Shown: positions 23,231 through 60,423 of the stretch, piece by piece
Numbering within the stretch: the stretch's first letter is position 1
Layout of the letters: every line of letters starts with the position of its first letter
Origin: a virus
Reading direction: 5' to 3' (one strand)
Virus genome (UHGV): UHGV-0038492
DNA: 64,000 bases
Notes under the pieces: model-generated
Databases searched by the model: none
Told to the model about the DNA's origin: nothing
What the model saw: the letters and a program-made list of their open reading frames with translations, nothing else
Translations under genes and position numbers: made by a program

Positions 23231-23374
23231 ATGATTTCTGTAAAACACAAAAAAGCTATCTTCGCTGTTGTTATCGCTGTTGTTCTGGGTTGCCTGTACC
23301 TGGATATCGACAAAGGCTACGACACTTGCATCGACAACGGTAATTCCGTTGCACAGTGCACTGGTCGTGGTTAA
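23231..23374 (+). CDS. small putative lipoprotein (47 aa precursor)
   Basis: RBS aggag 8 nt before ATG; hydrophobic N-terminus ending in lipobox-like VLGC; mature part has 3 Cys; highly biased codons; flanked by promoter-like element and terminator. Confidence 0.5.
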   Translation: MISVKHKKAIFAVVIAVVLGCLYLDIDKGYDTCIDNGNSVAQCTGRG

Positions 23375-34709: not shown

Positions 34710-37379
34710 TTAGAGAGTTTCATCGGTGTTGTCGTCTGTACCGGTATCCGTCTCGTCCGTGCCCTCAGTTGAAACTTCTTCTTCCGTTGTCGTATCGGTT
34801 TCCGTCGTTTCATCATCGGTCATGTCCAAGTCTTCATCACCGCCCAGATCGTCGCCACCAAAGTCGTTGCCCCCGCCGAAGTTATTGGCGTCTTCAGGAT
34901 TCAAATCAGCCGCTTTTGCTATCGTCTGAACTTTACCGGTCGCACGTTTTGCTAACTGAATCAGCGTCTTCGATGCTGCTGCAATTTCATCAGAAATCAT
35001 CTTGACGTTTTCACCACGTTTATCTTCATCGTAGATCAAATCAAACAGATCGGTTTCGATGCCCTGATTACGTAGCCAGTTGCGCGCGTAGAAGGTCTTA
35101 ACCATCGTCTTGAGGTCATCAGGTGACATTTCAATACCTTCGTTCTGAAGCATATTAGCAATGTCGTCCGTGACCACCAGATCTGCAAGTTTCTCGATAA
35201 ATTCATAGCGTTTATCGAAGAGATCAGCTTGAGATGCTGTTGCAGAAGTATCAGGCGGCGGCAAGGTGACCTTCATACCGTTTATAAACTTCGCCATATA
35301 CTCTGACGTTTGTTTTGTCATCTCTTCGCTAGTTACATTCGGATTCTGCTCACGGATATACTCAACGATAATACGGATGAGTTCTGCTTGCAGTTTCGGT
35401 GAAGCTTGCAGACTGTTTGTAACGTAGCGCGTAAGCGGGGTTGAGAGGATTTCCTGTTTCTTCACAATCTGTTGAGTAACCAACAGCGATTTAGAATAAA
35501 TCTGAGAAGCAAACTCCAGGTTCTCCGGGGTAAGTACAAGGTCAGGATCAACACACGCGATGTGACATGTACGGCGTAACAGGTTCTCGTCAATTTGTTG
35601 ATCAGGAACTTTATACTCCGGCGTGGTATCAGACACAGATACTTTGTGGCTGGCGTAGTAATCGTTACCCGTTACGTTAAAGGCAATCCCCGCGTTAGCC
35701 CCCATTGACCAGGCGTCGTTGATATCACCCCACATCGGCAGGCGACGATTGTAGGAATTAAGGATATCTGATTTAACTTGGTCAACAGTTTTTTGACCGT
35801 TTGCATCATCTGGTGACAGCTCAATGTCGTACTGCATGTGACGTGCCGAGTTCAGTACAGATGAGTTCATCGTTGCGAACAGCAGCGCCATCCTGACAGT
35901 AGAGATAATAAAGGAGCGCTCAGTAATAGAAACCCCGATACCGTCTTCGTTAAAGTCCGTTGCAAAATAGCACAAGTTATTAACCGGAATGTAAACCACC
36001 TGAGTATGACGTTTTGCGAGATGCCGCGCTAACAGAATACGACCGAATGTTTCGGTAATATTCATGCTGATTTCTGCGCCACCTAGTGCCTGACTTAATG
36101 CGCGTGCAAATTCGTTTTCAGCGATTTCACCACAACGTGTACTTAAACGGTTGGCGATTTCCGGGGTAATACGAGAAGTGTTCCCTAAGCCCAGATTAGA
36201 ACGGTTAATGATGCTGTCCGTCATCCCGTCGTTATTCAGGTAGTTCATAAAGTTCGCATCGCCGTACAGCGAGGAGCGAGCATTGATGAAGTTACCCATG
36301 TCATCTACGATGGTCAGATAACCGATAGGGTTACGAACGTCATCGCCAATTACCAGTGGCAGCGTTGACTCTGCGGGCAGTAAACGTTCGATGTATTCGA
36401 TTTTGTTATTCTCATCCATTGAGATAATAGGAATATCACCGTACGTTTGTGTTTTCGGTGTTGACTTATACGCCTCGTTTAAATCACCCAAGTTAATGAA
36501 CCCTTTTTCAGCAGCGTCACGCTGACGGTCATCGAAAGATTGATTAGGGTCGAACGGACTGCCACCGTTTGGTGTAGACGGCTTTTCATATGCGGCTTGC
36601 TCTAATTGCCCGTACAATCCCGTACGTGCGTTCTCATGCGCAATACGACGATACAAATCCGGCAGCATGGTAATGCGCGGGTTATCGGTAATCGTGATTT
36701 CCATCTGGAATTTATCCGAGAACATCGAATCGTGCTTACCGAAATCGATTTTCAATGTTTGTGGACCAGTAACGGCTCCGCGTAAACGGTTGAGAATTGA
36801 TTCTACACCAACTCGCTGCCCTTCTTTCGGCGCATTAATAGGCCCGAGGATACCAAGCTGTTGTTCGAAGAACGCCGTTTGAGAACGACGAATAGATTCA
36901 GTAGCGACCTTTGTATTCAGACCGAATAATTGGTCGAAGCCGGTATCCGAGATTATCATCACTGGACTTGCGCCTTTGGTTTTTAACGCATCGTAAATCC
37001 ACTGATATAATTTCTTAGGTAGCTGACGAATGTTATCGTGATAATCACGGGTCGGTGTCAGTAGCGCGTTACGCAGATCAATGGGGATGTCCGCGAAGTT
37101 GTCGTAAATCAACGTCGTGTTGATTAAGTCTTTTGTTGATAGCAGGCTCGAAGTTGCAATAGTAACGATTGTTTCGAGTTCAGGTAACGCATCAAAGATA
37201 CGTTCCGCATTTTTGATAGTACGAATACGTGAACTCGCAATTGCCGTGAGTTCTTGACGTGTTGGCGTAGAACCACCCTCGCTACGCGTACCGCGTTGTT
37301 GCTGAGGTGCTGGGCCCGTAGTTTTACGAAGAATTGCAGCTACGGCGGGGTCGCCCGTTAATTTACTAATATCGTCCAT
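34710..37379 (-). CDS. large virion protein, candidate portal protein (889 aa) with acidic C-terminal tail
   Basis: Long minus-strand ORF ~100 kDa with D/E/T-rich C-terminus; lies six genes from the capsid gene, as I recall for phiKZ-like phages; functional call is inference only. Confidence 0.4.
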   Translation of the reverse strand: MDDISKLTGDPAVAAILRKTTGPAPQQQRGTRSEGGSTPTRQELTAIASSRIRTIKNAERIFDALPELETIVTIATSSLLSTKDLINTTLIYDNFADIPIDLRNALLTPTRDYHDNIRQLPKKLYQWIYDALKTKGASPVMIISDTGFDQLFGLNTKVATESIRRSQTAFFEQQLGILGPINAPKEGQRVGVESILNRLRGAVTGPQTLKIDFGKHDSMFSDKFQMEITITDNPRITMLPDLYRRIAHENARTGLYGQLEQAAYEKPSTPNGGSPFDPNQSFDDRQRDAAEKGFINLGDLNEAYKSTPKTQTYGDIPIISMDENNKIEYIERLLPAESTLPLVIGDDVRNPIGYLTIVDDMGNFINARSSLYGDANFMNYLNNDGMTDSIINRSNLGLGNTSRITPEIANRLSTRCGEIAENEFARALSQALGGAEISMNITETFGRILLARHLAKRHTQVVYIPVNNLCYFATDFNEDGIGVSITERSFIISTVRMALLFATMNSSVLNSARHMQYDIELSPDDANGQKTVDQVKSDILNSYNRRLPMWGDINDAWSMGANAGIAFNVTGNDYYASHKVSVSDTTPEYKVPDQQIDENLLRRTCHIACVDPDLVLTPENLEFASQIYSKSLLVTQQIVKKQEILSTPLTRYVTNSLQASPKLQAELIRIIVEYIREQNPNVTSEEMTKQTSEYMAKFINGMKVTLPPPDTSATASQADLFDKRYEFIEKLADLVVTDDIANMLQNEGIEMSPDDLKTMVKTFYARNWLRNQGIETDLFDLIYDEDKRGENVKMISDEIAAASKTLIQLAKRATGKVQTIAKAADLNPEDANNFGGGNDFGGDDLGGDEDLDMTDDETTETDTTTEEEVSTEGTDETDTGTDDNTDETL

Positions 37380-54254: not shown

Positions 54255-54295
54255 TGCCCCTCTCTCCGTTTGGAGAGAGGGTGTATTTATTTTTA
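54255..54295 (+). terminator. Rho-independent terminator
   Basis: Stem cccctctctcc / ggagagaggg with loop gttt, then gtatttattttt. Confidence 0.8.
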
Positions 54296-55301: not shown

Positions 55302-55342
55302 TGCCCCTCTCTCCGCTAGGAGAGAGGGTACTTTTATTTTTC
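55302..55342 (+). terminator. Rho-independent terminator (near-duplicate of 54255-54295)
   Basis: Stem cccctctctcc / ggagagaggg with loop gcta, then tacttttattttt. Confidence 0.8.
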
Positions 55343-55355
55343 TTCGAGGTGTGTG

Positions 55356-55844
55356 ATGACAACGGTATTAGTAACAAAGGATTACATTTTAGCCGATCGG
55401 TTGGTTGATTACGGCGGTACAGTTAAAGAGCTTCCTAAATTACACAAATACAAAAACAAATTCGTTGTTTACACTGGGGAACGTGTATTGGACTCTGATC
55501 TCTGGAAAACGATGATAATGTCCGCAGCAGAAAAATATTTAATTGAAGAAAAGCGAACTAAGGTTGAAGGGATATTTAAAGATCTTATCGAAAAAGAACG
55601 ACTTTTCGATCAGGTTATTATTTTTACAGCTAAGGAAACGTTTTGGCTAGGGTTGGTAGCAGATAAATTTGAAGCCCACACATTGAATAAAAACACGGTT
55701 TGGACAACGGGTTCAGGTCAAGGTTTTGCTCGAGCAGCATGGGCATCAGGCATAGCCGAAAAGAATATCGTCCCCTTAGTAGGTTCGATCGATACAGCGA
55801 CATCACAGTCTTACGACTTGTTTTACAGGAAGCATTTACGATGA
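55356..55844 (+). CDS. hypothetical protein (162 aa)
   Basis: ATG 55356 with RBS gaggt 5 nt upstream. Confidence 0.55.
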   Translation: MTTVLVTKDYILADRLVDYGGTVKELPKLHKYKNKFVVYTGERVLDSDLWKTMIMSAAEKYLIEEKRTKVEGIFKDLIEKERLFDQVIIFTAKETFWLGLVADKFEAHTLNKNTVWTTGSGQGFARAAWASGIAEKNIVPLVGSIDTATSQSYDLFYRKHLR

Positions 55845-56362
55845 AAATAAATGCGGTTTTAATTGGCGAAGAAATATTCGTGAATACAAAAACACAATAC
55901 TTGTGCTACGAAGGCATTACTGTAATAGATGACTATTACGGTAAGTACGGTTGGTGGATTCCGTCACCTAACTCTTTGCGATTAGAAGAAGCAATAACTG
56001 CCGAAGAAAACAAACTGGATGATGAATGGACTTATATCAGCTCCGTAATTGACGTTAGCGGACGAATTAAAGACGTCTTCTGGGCTAAAGGTATAGGGTG
56101 GCGTGTTACGCTACATCAAGCCACACCGGTAAGATTGTTGTACGACCACACTGACACTTCGGAGTTAGCGTTTACCATTGAGACGCTCTCAGTGCGTAAA
56201 GATTTAGATAACGTAGGTAAAGGGAAGTGGTCGATTGAACGTATAGAGGAAATTCTCAGTCACTTTAAAGCCAACAACCAATTTAAACGTTGGTGTACGC
56301 TACCTGAGTTAGTAGAAGAGTTGAAAAAGCGGGATTGCAAGCCGCTACCTTTTAATCCGTAA
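55841..56362 (+). CDS. hypothetical protein (173 aa)
   Basis: ATGA start/stop overlap with upstream gene (track start 55700 rejected as too overlapping). Confidence 0.5.
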   Translation: MKINAVLIGEEIFVNTKTQYLCYEGITVIDDYYGKYGWWIPSPNSLRLEEAITAEENKLDDEWTYISSVIDVSGRIKDVFWAKGIGWRVTLHQATPVRLLYDHTDTSELAFTIETLSVRKDLDNVGKGKWSIERIEEILSHFKANNQFKRWCTLPELVEELKKRDCKPLPFNP

Positions 56363-56406
56363 CTTTTTACGAATGCAGCTATTTTAATGATTAGGAGAAT
56401 ATAGAG

Positions 56407-56802
56407 ATGACAGCAATACTAGGTGTAATGGCAAGAAAAGCCGACATCATTGAAACGTTTATTGAGCAATACAACAACTCGCCGTATACGCGTTTTAGAT
56501 TACATAAACCGAAGAATAGTACAGAATGGGTTCGCTGGTTCAGGATTTGGGATAAAACAATAAGTAAAATTGATCCGTTATTTAGAATAACGGTTGAACC
56601 TGCTTATTGGATTGTAATGGAAATTTCGCTATTACGTATTATCGAAAAACGTCCGATTGACACTATGACGATGTTTGGGAAAGATACGTATAAAATGTTG
56701 ACCAATGGTTTTGTGGGTAATGGGGAACACACGTTGTATCAGGCGATGCTGGAAATGTGTTTGTTCGATTTAGTTACTTACGAATTGGGGATTTCAAAAT
56801 GA
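56407..56802 (+). CDS. hypothetical protein (131 aa)
   Basis: RBS aggagaatatagag before ATG 56407. Confidence 0.55.
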   Translation: MTAILGVMARKADIIETFIEQYNNSPYTRFRLHKPKNSTEWVRWFRIWDKTISKIDPLFRITVEPAYWIVMEISLLRIIEKRPIDTMTMFGKDTYKMLTNGFVGNGEHTLYQAMLEMCLFDLVTYELGISK

Positions 56803-57263
56803 ATTGCTTCGAATCTAAAGAAATTGTTGAGTTGTTTAAGCAACGTGAGAAAACAACATTCCGTGACCTGTACGATTCCGATTACCGTCCTCTGTTTGCG
56901 GTATTGTTGAAACTGGATAAAGAACCCGAAATCGCACTAGCAGAAGTTCAGCATCATCACATCAGTTTCGTGTTAACTGAAAACAAGGAACGTTGGGTAG
57001 ATGACATACTGGGTCGTATTGCGCTTTTGGAAACGCCGCATCGCTGGGAAGTGGTTATTCAGAAATCGTTGTTCCCGCGTGAAGACATTTTCAACAATTA
57101 TCGTCCGAAACAGTATTACAACCACGACGGGTCACCAAAACGTGCTTTTCTGGCACCCCAGCATTTCGTAACCTACGTAACGTTGCGTTACAAAGACACC
57201 GTGGTACCGTTTGACACCTACCTGGAAATGCGTGAGATAATTTTAGGGAAGAATCCAACATGA
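56799..57263 (+). CDS. hypothetical protein (154 aa)
   Basis: ATGA overlap with upstream gene; start at MNCFES. Confidence 0.5.
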   Translation: MNCFESKEIVELFKQREKTTFRDLYDSDYRPLFAVLLKLDKEPEIALAEVQHHHISFVLTENKERWVDDILGRIALLETPHRWEVVIQKSLFPREDIFNNYRPKQYYNHDGSPKRAFLAPQHFVTYVTLRYKDTVVPFDTYLEMREIILGKNPT

Positions 57264-57742
57264 TTCAATTTTCTGTTGACGCAGAAAGACTGGCGTCGTT
57301 TAAAGAACGTGCTCAGTCTGCAACTAAAAACGGCTATATCGAGAAAGGTGTTCGTGATACCTGTAAACTAATTAACGACCATCCGCACCTGGCGACAATG
57401 TGGAGCTGTGAAGGTCACGGTATGTATTCTAAGTCACCTGGAAATCTGCATATCGTTTTTGCAACAGACGCTATTGGAAGTCAGATTCCAATGCAGGTTA
57501 TGTCCGAACTTGCAAAATCGGATTTACCTAATTTTTGGAATCTTAGTTTGTGTCGTCTTTATATACCAGATTCATACACGGATTTGGTATATCTTGAACC
57601 TGACTATGGGCTAAACACCGACGACACGTCTTACTGGGCTTGGAAAATCGGATACATGTGCTTGATTAATCGGCCAGCATTAATTGAGACACGTCAAGCT
57701 CTTTACAAAGCATTTCACACAGTATTAGTTGAGAATAAATAA
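57260..57742 (+). CDS. hypothetical protein (160 aa)
   Basis: ATGA overlap with upstream gene. Confidence 0.55.
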   Translation: MIQFSVDAERLASFKERAQSATKNGYIEKGVRDTCKLINDHPHLATMWSCEGHGMYSKSPGNLHIVFATDAIGSQIPMQVMSELAKSDLPNFWNLSLCRLYIPDSYTDLVYLEPDYGLNTDDTSYWAWKIGYMCLINRPALIETRQALYKAFHTVLVENK

Positions 57743-58434
57743 TGGCTACCAAACAAAAGAAACCTCGTAACAAAAAGTATAACCCGAAAGCGGCTGCTAA
57801 CCGTACTGCGCACACCATTGCTGAAAATGCGCTAAACCGTATTACTTTCGTCGGTAGCTCTATTCGTCCTATTGGTCCGTACGCAGGCCGTGGTTTCCAG
57901 TTCACAACGTCACCGCGTATGCGCATGGCAGCGACTGATATGTTAATCGGTGGTTTGTTTGACGAACCACGTAACTGGAAACTCTGGGTTGCGCATCTGT
58001 ACGAAACGGATAATGGTGTACAAGCAGAAACCGTCGTGGCAACGCTTGACGACTACACGTTAAGTGACTTCTGTCAACACGGCGACAAAATCATCAAGTC
58101 GTTACGTGAGACAGAAGAAAACTACTTCGGTTACGCTTTCGTTGCTGCACCTAACGAACGCTATGATTTCGACCAGGGAGAAGAACGCTTACTGGAAAAC
58201 TTCATGCATTCTGGACTGTTAGACAAATCCTTACACTTACCTGAAGAAGAACTGATGGTTTCGCGTAAGGATATGGTAACGTTGCTGTTAGCCGACCGTG
58301 GTCGTTTTGATATCACCGAGCCACATGTACGTAAGGTACAGAAACTCGTGGATAAGGTAGACGAAACTGACCTGGACACTAATGAAGTCGCAACGCGTAT
58401 TCAAAGTGTAGTAAACCAGATTGAGGATTACTAA
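57742..58434 (+). CDS. hypothetical protein (230 aa) with basic N-terminus
   Basis: TAATG overlap with upstream gene; N-terminal KQKKPRNKKYNPK. Confidence 0.6.
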   Translation: MATKQKKPRNKKYNPKAAANRTAHTIAENALNRITFVGSSIRPIGPYAGRGFQFTTSPRMRMAATDMLIGGLFDEPRNWKLWVAHLYETDNGVQAETVVATLDDYTLSDFCQHGDKIIKSLRETEENYFGYAFVAAPNERYDFDQGEERLLENFMHSGLLDKSLHLPEEELMVSRKDMVTLLLADRGRFDITEPHVRKVQKLVDKVDETDLDTNEVATRIQSVVNQIEDY

Positions 58435-58436
58435 AC

Positions 58437-58967
58437 GTGATAGCACGACTTGTGGGTTGGTTTAAGCAACGTCGTGCAAAGGCGGTCGAATGGCCGCCTA
58501 TTACGCATGACGAGAAAGTGGCTCTTTTTTTGGGGTATAACAAAGACTTGGGGAGATTAGGCGAGTTAATGCACTTAACGGAACGCCAGGTTTTTGCTAA
58601 GATTTCGAGCAGCGAGTTGCGTAAAGAAGTAATTCCCCACCTATCCTTTTTAGGGCAGGTTTATGCAAAGACGACAGAGGAATTTTTATCAACCCAAGGT
58701 AGCGAACGGCCACATATTCGGTTTTCCGTCGTAGGTGAACCTGATACGGTAGGTGAAATCGATTTTAAGATGCTGTATCGCAGAATAAAAGATGATGGGT
58801 TTATACATGTTAAACGATTATCAGAAACTTCTGTGGTGATTTATCATCGCACTGATCAGGATTTGTTAGGGTGTGTTATAAAGCTATCAAATTTACATAG
58901 TTTTTACGTTGATTTACTTACGGACTTTTATCCAGAACCTTGGTGCTTTATAGATGAAAATAAATGA
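58437..58967 (+). CDS. hypothetical protein (176 aa), GTG start
   Basis: GTG 58437 with RBS gagga 9 nt upstream. Confidence 0.5.
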   Translation: MIARLVGWFKQRRAKAVEWPPITHDEKVALFLGYNKDLGRLGELMHLTERQVFAKISSSELRKEVIPHLSFLGQVYAKTTEEFLSTQGSERPHIRFSVVGEPDTVGEIDFKMLYRRIKDDGFIHVKRLSETSVVIYHRTDQDLLGCVIKLSNLHSFYVDLLTDFYPEPWCFIDENK

Positions 58968-59166
58968 CGGATATATCATTTCAGCAATCGTTTCAACTGC
59001 GTTGATTGTAGCGATGTTGATGTTCTACGTTAAGACGTCTGACGAATCACGTAGAGACTCCCTTTATCGTGAATGTATGTCAGGCACTACTGTAGATAGC
59101 CCACGTTACGCTGAATTAGTAATGGCGTGTACGGAATACGCTAATCGAATGGGAGGAGGGAAATGA
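58954..59166 (+). CDS. small membrane/secreted protein (70 aa)
   Basis: N-terminal hydrophobic segment IISAIVSTALIVAMLMFYV, then LYRECM...ACTEY; sequence-related to the next ORF. Confidence 0.45.
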   Translation: MKINDGYIISAIVSTALIVAMLMFYVKTSDESRRDSLYRECMSGTTVDSPRYAELVMACTEYANRMGGGK

Positions 59167-59360
59167 AAATTTGGTTGCCGATTGTAGTTTTTATCGTTAT
59201 TGCAGGGGCTTTAGCGAATGCCGAGTACGACTCTCGTACTTTAGAAACGAAACGTGAATTGTACCAGGACTGTATAAAGGATTATACACCGGGCACAGAA
59301 CTTCATGCGCAAGCTGTAAAAAGCTGTGCGCTGATGGCTGAATCGCAGACTCGTTCCTAA
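59163..59360 (+). CDS. small secreted protein with signal peptide (65 aa)
   Basis: Strong RBS ggaggagg; N-terminus MKIWLPIVVFIVIAGALANA (AxA cleavage-like), then LYQDCI...SCALM; related to previous ORF. Confidence 0.5.
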   Translation: MKIWLPIVVFIVIAGALANAEYDSRTLETKRELYQDCIKDYTPGTELHAQAVKSCALMAESQTRS

Positions 59361-59734
59361 TGCGTATCTGGACGCTACAACTCGCTAAGTGGCGGTTAGC
59401 TAAGCAGAAAGGATTTCACGCAGTGGATATCACTGTGAAGTCAGGGCGGAAGGAACTCGCCCCCGACTGGGATTTCCTAATGGCGTATAAAAACTCTGCC
59501 CAAGACGCCGCCGCTGAGCGTGAATACACGATAAAGTATTTGTACAAGCTCGAACGACTGTTAGATGCCGATGCCGAAACGTTGGTCTCGTTGCTTAGAC
59601 ACGAAGATTTGGTTTTGATGTGTTATTGTCCCGCAGGTAAGTTTTGTCATCGTCACCTACTGGCGAGCAAACTTCAAGAAGTAGGAATGATGTTCGGTAT
59701 CGATGTTGAGTTGTGTGGCGAATTAACCGAATGA
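59360..59734 (+). CDS. DUF488-like protein (124 aa), putative
   Basis: C-terminal LVLMCYCPAGKFCHRHLLA resembles the Cys-x-Cys...CHR signature I associate with DUF488; coupled TAATG start. Confidence 0.45.
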   Translation: MRIWTLQLAKWRLAKQKGFHAVDITVKSGRKELAPDWDFLMAYKNSAQDAAAEREYTIKYLYKLERLLDADAETLVSLLRHEDLVLMCYCPAGKFCHRHLLASKLQEVGMMFGIDVELCGELTE

Positions 59735-59796
59735 AAAACTTTATCAAAACCTTCCGAAAATCACCAATCGTTCTTGATTTTTAAGTACAGAATAGT

Positions 59797-59842
59797 CTCC
59801 TACCGCCCGATTCTATGGGCGGTAGGTGTTTTATTTTTTTTT
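59797..59842 (+). terminator. Rho-independent terminator
   Basis: Stem cctaccgccc / gggcggtagg with loop gattctat, then tgttttattttttttt. Confidence 0.8.
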
Positions 59843-59859: not shown

Positions 59860-60423
59860 GTGGCCACATCTTACGTACCTGATTTGAGTCTGACCTCAGC
59901 AGAGCTAGTGGTCGCTTTAATCAATCATGATAACGGGTTACAGCTTACACTAAACGAAATCCGTATTAGCGGAACTGTAACAAACCCATCCCCAACAACT
60001 TCGCGACGTAACACTATCACCGAAATCAGTAAAATCAGAAAACCAGATGGTGCGTCTGTTGTGGTTTACTACGACAGACTTGACGCCGATGAGGTATTAA
60101 CGTCCGAACCTATTTTGATTTCGTTAGACGGTACCGAAGCGAACATTCGTGATGTGCTTAGTGTTGTAAATGAATACTGCGGTACGAATTTACAACCTGA
60201 GGACTTACGTGCCTCAGATATTACTTCAGGTAATGATCCTATTGCTATTAACGTTGCTGACGATTCTCCTGCCTGGATGAATGCGTTTATGGTGACGTTG
60301 TTTGATAAAACCGAACGTGCGTTAGCGAACGAAGAAGATGAAATCTTCTGCATCGGTGACGATAGCGTTCTTACATTCGAGGTTACAGATGGCGACAGCA
60401 CTGAAGAAGACGAGACTCCATGA
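59860..60423 (+). CDS. hypothetical protein (187 aa), acidic C-terminus
   Basis: RBS ggaggg before ATG 59860. Confidence 0.55.
   Translation: MATSYVPDLSLTSAELVVALINHDNGLQLTLNEIRISGTVTNPSPTTSRRNTITEISKIRKPDGASVVVYYDRLDADEVLTSEPILISLDGTEANIRDVLSVVNEYCGTNLQPEDLRASDITSGNDPIAINVADDSPAWMNAFMVTLFDKTERALANEEDEIFCIGDDSVLTFEVTDGDSTEEDETP

Follow-up and report, generated by a model that had tools for sequence, protein, structure and literature searches.

What purpose is served by two adjacent genes for proteins of 70 and 65 amino acids (aa) in the genome of a jumbo phage, and are they genes at all? The question is raised by a 64,000-nucleotide stretch of the virus genome UHGV-0038492 (the window, from whose first letter all positions are counted), which comes from an SPN3US-like jumbo phage. 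On its plus strand, two small open reading frames (ORFs) lie directly upstream of a gene for a DUF488-like protein; we call them orfA (58954..59166, 70 aa) and orfB (59163..59360, 65 aa). A reading made from the sequence alone had pointed to these two ORFs, had described them as related, hydrophobic at their N-termini and aimed at the envelope, and had put forward superinfection exclusion, lysis control and receptor masking as roles that small phage proteins of this sort often play. Both ORFs are present as described, and the comparisons presented here make us highly confident that they are real, exported paralogues that form a tandem duplicate pair. Their function is approached more tentatively.

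A tandem pair of exported paralogues

Compared directly by BLASTP, the two proteins share 27% identity (E=2e-4). When their soluble parts are aligned by the Smith-Waterman method, the score is 45 vs 21.1 +/- 4.4 for shuffled sequences (z~5.4, p=2e-4), and profiles of the two families, aligned with hhalign, match in register at P=4e-4. The related tails span ~44 residues and contain two cysteines, C41 and C59 in orfA (59074-59076 and 59128-59130, plus strand) and C37 and C55 in orfB (59271-59273 and 59325-59327, plus strand), which are spaced alike in the two proteins (C-X17-C) and are retained without exception by the homologues collected. The resemblance that the sequence-only reading had noticed between the two tails and their cysteines is thus statistically significant.

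That these are real genes is argued by purifying selection together with conserved synteny. Between the window and two relatives, the ratio of nonsynonymous to synonymous substitution rates (dN/dS, Nei-Gojobori) is 0.14-0.17 for orfA and 0.16-0.28 for orfB, that is, 0.14-0.28 over the pair. The order of genes, which encode a 230-aa protein, a 176-aa protein, the 70-aa and 65-aa proteins and DUF488, is kept in six further contigs or replicons (related loci L007-L012, L020 and L021), where the tail-fibre genes downstream differ. Both cysteines are invariant among the orfA homologues (n=13, 71-100% identity). The signals for translation are likewise consistent with a coupled pair: the stop codon of orfA and the start codon of orfB share ATGA (59163-59166), and the Shine-Dalgarno sequence of orfB, as strong as had been claimed, is GGGAGGAGGG (59151..59160, plus strand, read from the sequence), placed just ahead of the ATG at 59163 and encoded by the C-terminal Gly-Gly-Gly codons of orfA itself. 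In two deposited relatives, NZ_CP173450.1 and NZ_CP134650.1, the Prokaryotic Genome Annotation Pipeline (PGAP) leaves orfA unannotated, so that a gap stands between the 176-aa gene and orfB.

Each protein begins with a hydrophobic segment, as the earlier reading had stated, and the two segments appear to be of different kinds. Transmembrane (TM) segments and signal peptides were called from hydropathy, the -3/-1 rule and AlphaFold helices. In orfA, residues 6-26 (58969-59031, plus strand) form a 21-residue stretch without charged or amide residues (Kyte-Doolittle 2.45), and there is no small-x-small (AxA) cleavage motif; together these features suggest a signal-anchor, and orfA is predicted to be a bitopic inner-membrane protein whose uncleaved anchor is followed by a C-terminal domain of 44 aa. 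In orfB, Lys2, a 16-residue hydrophobic core and the residues A18-N-A20 ahead of E21 follow the classical signal peptidase I pattern as judged by the -3/-1 rule. Cleavage is predicted between ANA and EY, which would separate a signal peptide of residues 1-20 (59163-59222, plus strand) from a mature periplasmic domain of 45 aa (59223-59357, plus strand). Across the orfB homologues (n=16) the -3/-1 motif reads ANA, ASA or AKA; the signal region is variable yet hydrophobic, and the 45 mature residues are almost invariant.

AlphaFold2 (AF2) models based on the family alignments give both proteins a long N-terminal helix that continues into helix 1, a loop of 7-9 residues, and helix 2. These elements comprise residues 4-42, 43-51 and 52-67 in orfA (predicted local distance difference test score, pLDDT, 81) and residues 4-38, 39-45 and 46-64 in orfB (pLDDT 80.9). 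The shared domain of ~40 residues is predicted from these models to be a helix-loop-helix, that is, a helical hairpin, and it follows the motif [YF]-x-x-C-[IM] ... A-x-V-x-x-C, in which both cysteines and one valine are invariant over an alignment of 27 sequences. In the periplasm, both cysteines would most likely be oxidised.

A phage domain with three types of export signal

Does this domain occur outside the window? We counted as members those proteins in which an N-terminal export signal of any type is followed by a domain of ~40 aa with the pattern [YF]xxC[IM] ... AxVxxC. Besides orfA and orfB, gp116 of phage SPN3US and a group of lipoprotein forms answer to this description, with pairwise family P values of 4e-4 to 2e-3.

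SPN3US gp116 (SPN3US_0116; RefSeq ACQ60_gp150; phrog_28359) has 69 aa, carries a TM segment at its N-terminus and spaces its cysteines in the same C-X17-C pattern (FRMCI...DAC). Its gene occupies the same neighbourhood: it immediately follows the homologue of the 230-aa gene (phrog_6965) and precedes DUF488 and the tail-fibre genes. Alignments of gp116 with the two window proteins give P=1.4e-3 and 2e-3 by hhalign and p=8e-4 and 5e-3 by shuffling, all in register. However, identity is 17-24%, gp116 is a single short copy rather than one of a tandem pair, and its gene is not adjacent to DUF488. In a hidden Markov model (HMM) scan, neither orfA nor orfB matches phrog_28359 at E<=0.01, whereas gp116 itself scores 6.5e-51 on it; the relationship is visible only at the level of profile-profile comparison.

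When 1.84 billion cluster representatives were searched exhaustively with a profile, only 10 proteins reached E<=1e-3; these are the orfA, orfB and gp116 clusters, fragments, a few long and probably spurious proteins, and two small proteins with lipoprotein signals. Lipoboxes, which are absent from orfA and orfB, are found in the metagenomic relatives P0096 (...LLSAC followed by DEETHQRILFSNCINGKDSPEYAEAVKACADAAIRI), P0098 (...FLSAC followed by DQ...LFRNCINSINTSDTPGYAEVVKACSDAAIRI) and P0100. When signal peptides are removed and only mature sequences are compared by hhalign, the jumbo-phage set matches the lipoprotein set with Prob 97% and E=5e-11, and a tblastn search with P0096 returns the orfA locus of NZ_CP134650.1; a lipoprotein query of IMG/VR gave no confirmed loci. 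The mature domain of these lipoproteins is the same as that of orfA and orfB (LF.NCI...P.YAE.VKAC.DAA), but they carry a lipobox in place of a TM anchor or signal-peptidase-I signal, and they are encoded by single genes and not by pairs. These solitary genes sit in T4-like (Gp23 capsid) contigs, where their flanks are intergenic, or in a GC-rich contig with a DNA-methylase-like neighbour.

A further group, SPN3US gp118, Asesino gp134 and phiEaH2 gp041 (phrog_10627), probably belongs to the domain as well. These proteins are secreted by means of a signal peptide (AHA before AD), have two cysteines that flank a loop between two helices, carry a C..A..IA motif after it, and are encoded in the same genomic neighbourhood. 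Against the lipoprotein set they align with both cysteines in register (hhalign E=3.8e-5), and P0098 matches phrog_10627 at E=7.7e-5. They differ in their greater length (95-113 aa), an extended C-terminus and a wider loop between the cysteines (C-X21-C), and when compared directly with orfA and orfB they show weak similarity (E=0.022 by hhalign, with no significance in pairwise shuffles); Asesino gp134 also appears among the Foldseek matches in BFVD at a non-significant probability of 0.69. With gp116 anchored and gp118 secreted, SPN3US would, like the window, have one anchored and one secreted copy, here two genes apart. We found no literature on either protein.

That one domain is exported in three ways, with a TM anchor, as a substrate of signal peptidase I and as a lipoprotein, indicates that it acts in the periplasm. 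The envelope targeting proposed for the pair was thus well founded, as both proteins carry export signals and the lipoprotein forms of other phages strengthen the periplasmic assignment. As judged from these sequence comparisons, the domain defines a small, phage-specific and previously unrecognised family that is new with respect to Pfam, NCBIfam and PADLOC. Neither orfA nor orfB has a match in Pfam, PHROGs, NCBIfam or PADLOC, and tblastn of the two against 50,697 phage records gave nothing significant. Foldseek comparison of the AF2 models with PDB and BFVD gave no match at E<=0.001 (best E=0.94; a DUF1311 protein at E=4.7, neither significant), helical hairpins being poorly discriminating in such a search, and PDB chain sequences, searched with a profile, gave only five matches, none of them significant (best E=0.55).

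It is worth considering separately the EexN/TrbK-type entry-exclusion lipoproteins (IncN plasmid; NF033894), which are like the family in size (~65-75 aa), in having two cysteines and in their short helical mature domain. P0096 matches NF033894 at E=0.006, but the match is due to its lipoprotein signal peptide and vanishes when that is removed, and homology was rejected. In mature form, orfA, orfB, gp116, P0096 and P0098 give no match to NF033894 at E<=10, whereas mature R46 EexN scores 51.9 bits, and mature alignments with EexN by hhalign are null (P=0.54 and 0.14). Lipoprotein targeting is shared with EexN by P0096; orfA and orfB have no lipobox. Elsewhere in the window, a 47-aa ORF (23231-23374, plus strand) with a Shine-Dalgarno sequence, a lipobox-like VVLGC and two further cysteines (YDTCIDNGNSVAQC) may encode a small lipoprotein or an o-spanin; as a third member of the family it was rejected, the hhalign comparison not being significant.

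The DUF488 gene and its linkage to the pair

The gene that follows orfB (59360..59734, plus strand) encodes a cytoplasmic protein of 124 aa without an export signal. Its identification as DUF488-like holds in a Pfam search, in which it scores 46.1 bits on PF22751, DUF488-N3a (cut-off 27, E=7e-12, profile positions 34-116 of 118), and falls just under the cut-off for the generic DUF488 family, PF04343 (20.3 bits vs 22.2). It matches phrog_2450 (E=2e-42), is homologous to PHIKZ151 (40% identity) and is found by tblastn in 294 phage records, mostly of jumbo phages. In PADLOC it gives weak matches to the candidate defence components PDC-M45C (E=1e-4) and PDC-M19A (E=4e-4). In the titles and abstracts scanned, we found no functional study of a phage DUF488 protein.

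The sequence-only reading had described the pair as coupled to this gene. In the physical sense this is correct, as the stop codon of orfB and the start codon of DUF488 share TAATG; the functional side of the claim fares less well. In SPN3US, Asesino, phiEaH2 and pEa_SNUABM_29 the adjacency is lost, DUF488 being preceded by a protein of 335-370 aa (phrog_8825) and the small cysteine-containing proteins lying 1-2 kb upstream. Likewise, DUF488 does not neighbour the lipoprotein forms (3 kb from them there is a gene for DUF4326, a family with no demonstrated relationship to DUF488), and the region of phiKZ around PHIKZ151 (136-185 kb) contains no homologue of the other window proteins tested. Hence the linkage of the pair to DUF488 looks positional and conserved only within a clade of ~222-kb genomes. 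As a separate observation, the protein that precedes DUF488 in SPN3US, gp119 (L001 3037-4044, 335 aa), starts with FSAGLDS, which by eye resembles a PP-loop motif (SGGxDS); gp119 has no Pfam match, phrog_8825 carries no assigned function, and the gene is absent from the window.

Genomic setting and local divergence

The window has no near-identical match by megablast among 50,697 deposited phage genomes. Its proteins share ~58% amino acid identity with those of SPN3US (Seoulvirus) and of the Erskinevirus jumbo phages, and it also encodes a phiKZ-type major capsid protein, internal head proteins and a tail tube. The deposited relatives that are closer are filed as plasmids and not as phages: NZ_CP173450.1 (96% nucleotide identity) is a circular 221,873-bp "plasmid" of E. 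coli 98232, from a urinary isolate, and NZ_CP134650.1 (89% nucleotide identity) is a 222,441-bp "plasmid" of Enterobacter ludwigii, isolated from a gull. Many contigs of 220-230 kb carry the genes as well, some of them from gut metagenomes and others from assemblies of Salmonella, E. coli and Shigella. The presence of ~222-kb replicons in isolate assemblies suggests a carrier state or pseudolysogeny, or else systematic co-sequencing.

Immediately upstream of the pair, a 176-aa ORF, g176 (58437..58967, plus strand), overlaps orfA by 14 nt. It has no match in scans of Pfam, PHROG, NCBIfam or PADLOC, and no similarity to the positionally equivalent gp131 of Asesino. Its nucleotide identity to relatives is 58-97%, vs 93-98% for the 230-aa gene upstream of it, and the whole segment from g176 through orfB (58-99%) is less conserved than the genes on its two sides, which on the DUF488 side reach 91-94%. 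Between relatives, the segment 58437-59360 diverges faster than its surroundings, with nucleotide identity as low as 58-79%, and the synonymous divergence (dS) of orfA rises to 1.24 vs ~0.3 in neighbouring genes. The divergent segment and the dS of orfA suggest recombination or allelic replacement, and such local divergence is a pattern typical of accessory or interaction-driven genes.

The gene block ends at a strong intrinsic-terminator-like hairpin (59799-59826, with a stem of 11 bp that includes 8 G-C pairs) followed by a run of T (together 59799..59836, plus strand), beyond which the tail-fibre module begins at 59860. The preceding terminator-like site on the plus strand lies at 55305-55328, which suggests a single transcription unit from ~55340 to 59830. 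That site and another ~1 kb away (54258-54281, plus strand) have an identical stem, CCCTCTCTCCG-N4-GGAGAGAGGG, and may represent a repeated regulatory element. Between these sites and g176, a 131-aa ORF (56407-56802) has no counterpart at the corresponding position of the replicons from E. coli and Enterobacter (aligned identity 2%) and looks like an indel or replacement module. The adjacent ORFs 56757-57263 and 57260-57742 both match phrog_7413 and are tandem paralogues, the latter with a weak, sub-threshold TYW3-like match in Pfam.

In related phages the neighbourhood of the small cysteine-containing proteins is a hot spot for small membrane proteins. Proteins of 58-67 aa with two transmembrane domains (TMDs) are found beside them or in their place (L003 3087-3263, L006 2988-3185 and L002 2024-2227); Asesino gp133 belongs to phrog_32826.

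Where, then, are the lysis genes? Among the 58 window ORFs there is no lysozyme-type Pfam domain, and no endolysin was found in the operon of orfA and orfB or in the window. In NZ_CP173450.1, where orfA and orfB lie at ~55.3 kb, an exported SLT transglycosylase adjoins a protein with two TMDs at ~216-217.7 kb. In this locus (215948-217710, L029) the SLT protein has an N-terminal signal or signal-arrest-release (SAR)-like segment, and its neighbour of 159 aa has both TMDs at the N-terminus. At 35123-35713 of the same replicon (L026), a GH108 protein is flanked by a DUF1353 protein and an M15-like protein, with no TM neighbours. The clade's lysis genes probably lie at these two loci, ~60 kb (SLT) and ~20 kb (GH108) from the pair. 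A shared gene order with gp141-144, the lysis cassette of phiKZ, was considered and rejected: of 20 window proteins compared by tblastn with the 136-185 kb region of phiKZ, only DUF488 found a match, at PHIKZ151.

Discussion

The two proteins would reach their site of action as follows. The Sec pathway of the host would export both; orfA would be held in the inner membrane by its uncleaved signal-anchor with the C-terminus in the periplasm, and orfB would be cleaved by signal peptidase I to give a soluble periplasmic protein of 45 residues. The anchored and the soluble copy would then display the same helix-loop-helix domain and bind a target in the envelope or periplasm during infection. We infer the C-terminus-out topology, the oxidation of the cysteines, the existence of this target and the function proposed for the pair, which is superinfection exclusion: the infected cell would be protected against a second phage while that phage is penetrating the cell wall or delivering its DNA, much as Sp (Spackle) and Imm do for phage T4. 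Exclusion is our tentative first choice rather than a function that we regard as probable. It is favoured by the accessory, patchy distribution of the domain across unrelated lytic phages, by the local hypervariability of the g176-orfA-orfB segment, by the solitary, moron-like lipoprotein versions, and by the separation of the pair from the likely lysis genes.

Several observations weigh against exclusion or the topology on which it depends. No characterised exclusion protein is homologous to either of the two, the match to EexN having been rejected. With respect to Spackle and Imm, no homology emerged from the profile search of PDB sequences or from Foldseek against PDB and BFVD at the thresholds given above; T4 Spackle, Imm and RI are small Sec-dependent proteins of lytic phages that work in the periplasm or inner membrane, and the likeness of orfA and orfB to them is in kind only. 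The orientation of orfA is ambiguous by the positive-inside rule, as the window copy has a net charge of 0 on both sides of the membrane, its relatives having an N-terminal charge of +1 or +2. By DSSP, helix 1 of the AF2 models ends with the first cysteine, and helix 2 runs for ~8-9 residues before it reaches the second, so that a simple intramolecular staple is not obviously satisfied and an intermolecular link, in a homodimer or heterodimer, is just as plausible. Furthermore, superinfection exclusion is what one would guess by default for any small envelope protein of a lytic phage, and the lysis genes from which the pair appears to be separated are placed in this clade by sequence prediction.

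The main rival to exclusion, less probable but deserving of serious attention, is the control of lysis timing, in which the two proteins would be periplasmic holin regulators like T4 RI, or accessory lysis proteins. The RI antiholin has membrane-tethered and released periplasmic states, and the pair resembles RI in its architecture, a hydrophobic N-terminus joined to a small periplasmic domain of helices. In Asesino (gp133/gp134), pEa_SNUABM_29 (00034/00033) and STsAS, the gp118-like secreted protein adjoins small holin-like proteins with two TMDs, and neither a holin nor spanins have yet been assigned in this clade. Phage phiKZ shows a multiplicity-dependent delay of lysis, and its lysis cassette lies just upstream of the tail genes (PMC12894885). 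Yet the operon of orfA and orfB contains no endolysin or holin, the candidate endolysins of NZ_CP173450.1 are remote from it, the gene order of the phiKZ cassette is not shared, the lipoprotein genes of T4-like contigs stand alone, and the search of PDB sequences gave no significant match; the TM segment of orfA is also strongly hydrophobic, unlike typical SAR domains. It is highly improbable that the two genes are a spanin-like pair, with orfA as i-spanin and orfB as o-spanin. In phage lambda, Rz and Rz1 are adjacent overlapping spanin genes with an N-terminal TM segment in the first and with periplasmic cysteines in both. The window genes have these same features, as does the spanin pair that forms part of the phiKZ lysis cassette (PMC12894885); however, orfB lacks a lipobox cysteine and has a predicted signal peptidase I site instead, the 44-aa periplasmic part of orfA is a predicted hairpin far shorter than the coiled coil of an i-spanin (phiKZ gp141 has 168 aa), and orfA and orfB are paralogous whereas the subunits of a spanin are not.

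A different possibility, which we consider unlikely although not much more so than lysis control, is that the proteins are modulators of the host envelope, small periplasmic binders that inhibit or hijack a periplasmic enzyme, a sensor kinase or a protease of the host. Two precedents are generally known: PliC and MliC are lysozyme inhibitors in soluble and lipoprotein form, and MgrB is a small membrane peptide with two periplasmic cysteines that acts on PhoQ. The domain discussed here is likewise found in anchored, soluble and lipoprotein forms and, in orfA, combines two conserved periplasmic cysteines with a small TM peptide; the near-invariance of mature orfB suggests a conserved target, possibly one of the host. 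Against this, neither the sequence nor the fold matches such families, the Pfam, NCBIfam and PDB searches being negative and the Foldseek result not significant. Still less credible is a functional module of three genes, in which the exported pair would cooperate with a cytoplasmic DUF488 enzyme. The overlapping frames (ATGA and TAATG), the common terminator and the conservation of the arrangement across the ~222-kb clade speak for it. However, DUF488 and the small genes are no longer neighbours in SPN3US, in Erskinevirus phages or in pEa_SNUABM_29, lipoprotein homologues occur without DUF488 nearby, the proteins reside in different compartments of the cell, and DUF488 is conserved while the orfA-orfB segment diverges.

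Returning to exclusion, one can imagine a more elaborate version in which the anchored and soluble proteins form a disulfide-linked heteromeric device, specific to SPN3US-like jumbo phages, that detects or blocks a second infection at the envelope, with the domain serving as a portable envelope effector that has spread among unrelated phages, each time behind the export signal that fits the host. Such a device would be either a new mechanism of exclusion or the missing periplasmic sensor of a circuit of the lysis-inhibition type. We regard this joint reading as a long shot; there is no evidence for a mechanism outside the known categories, and the find is a modest one.

Nonetheless, a compact periplasmic domain that is confined to phages and is found with all three bacterial export signals invites attention. 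Few parts of phage genomes are understood as poorly as the small exported proteins, as the missing annotation of orfA in two deposited relatives illustrates, and the present work ties phrog_28359 and probably phrog_10627, neither of which has an assigned function, to new members. With two genes of ~200 bp, orfA and orfB also offer a clean and cheap target for experiment. If the pair does exclude phages or tune lysis, this would matter for the design of phage cocktails against Salmonella and E. coli and would inform our view of how SPN3US-like jumbo phages manage the envelope of their host; otherwise, orfA and orfB would be an ordinary pair of accessory genes.

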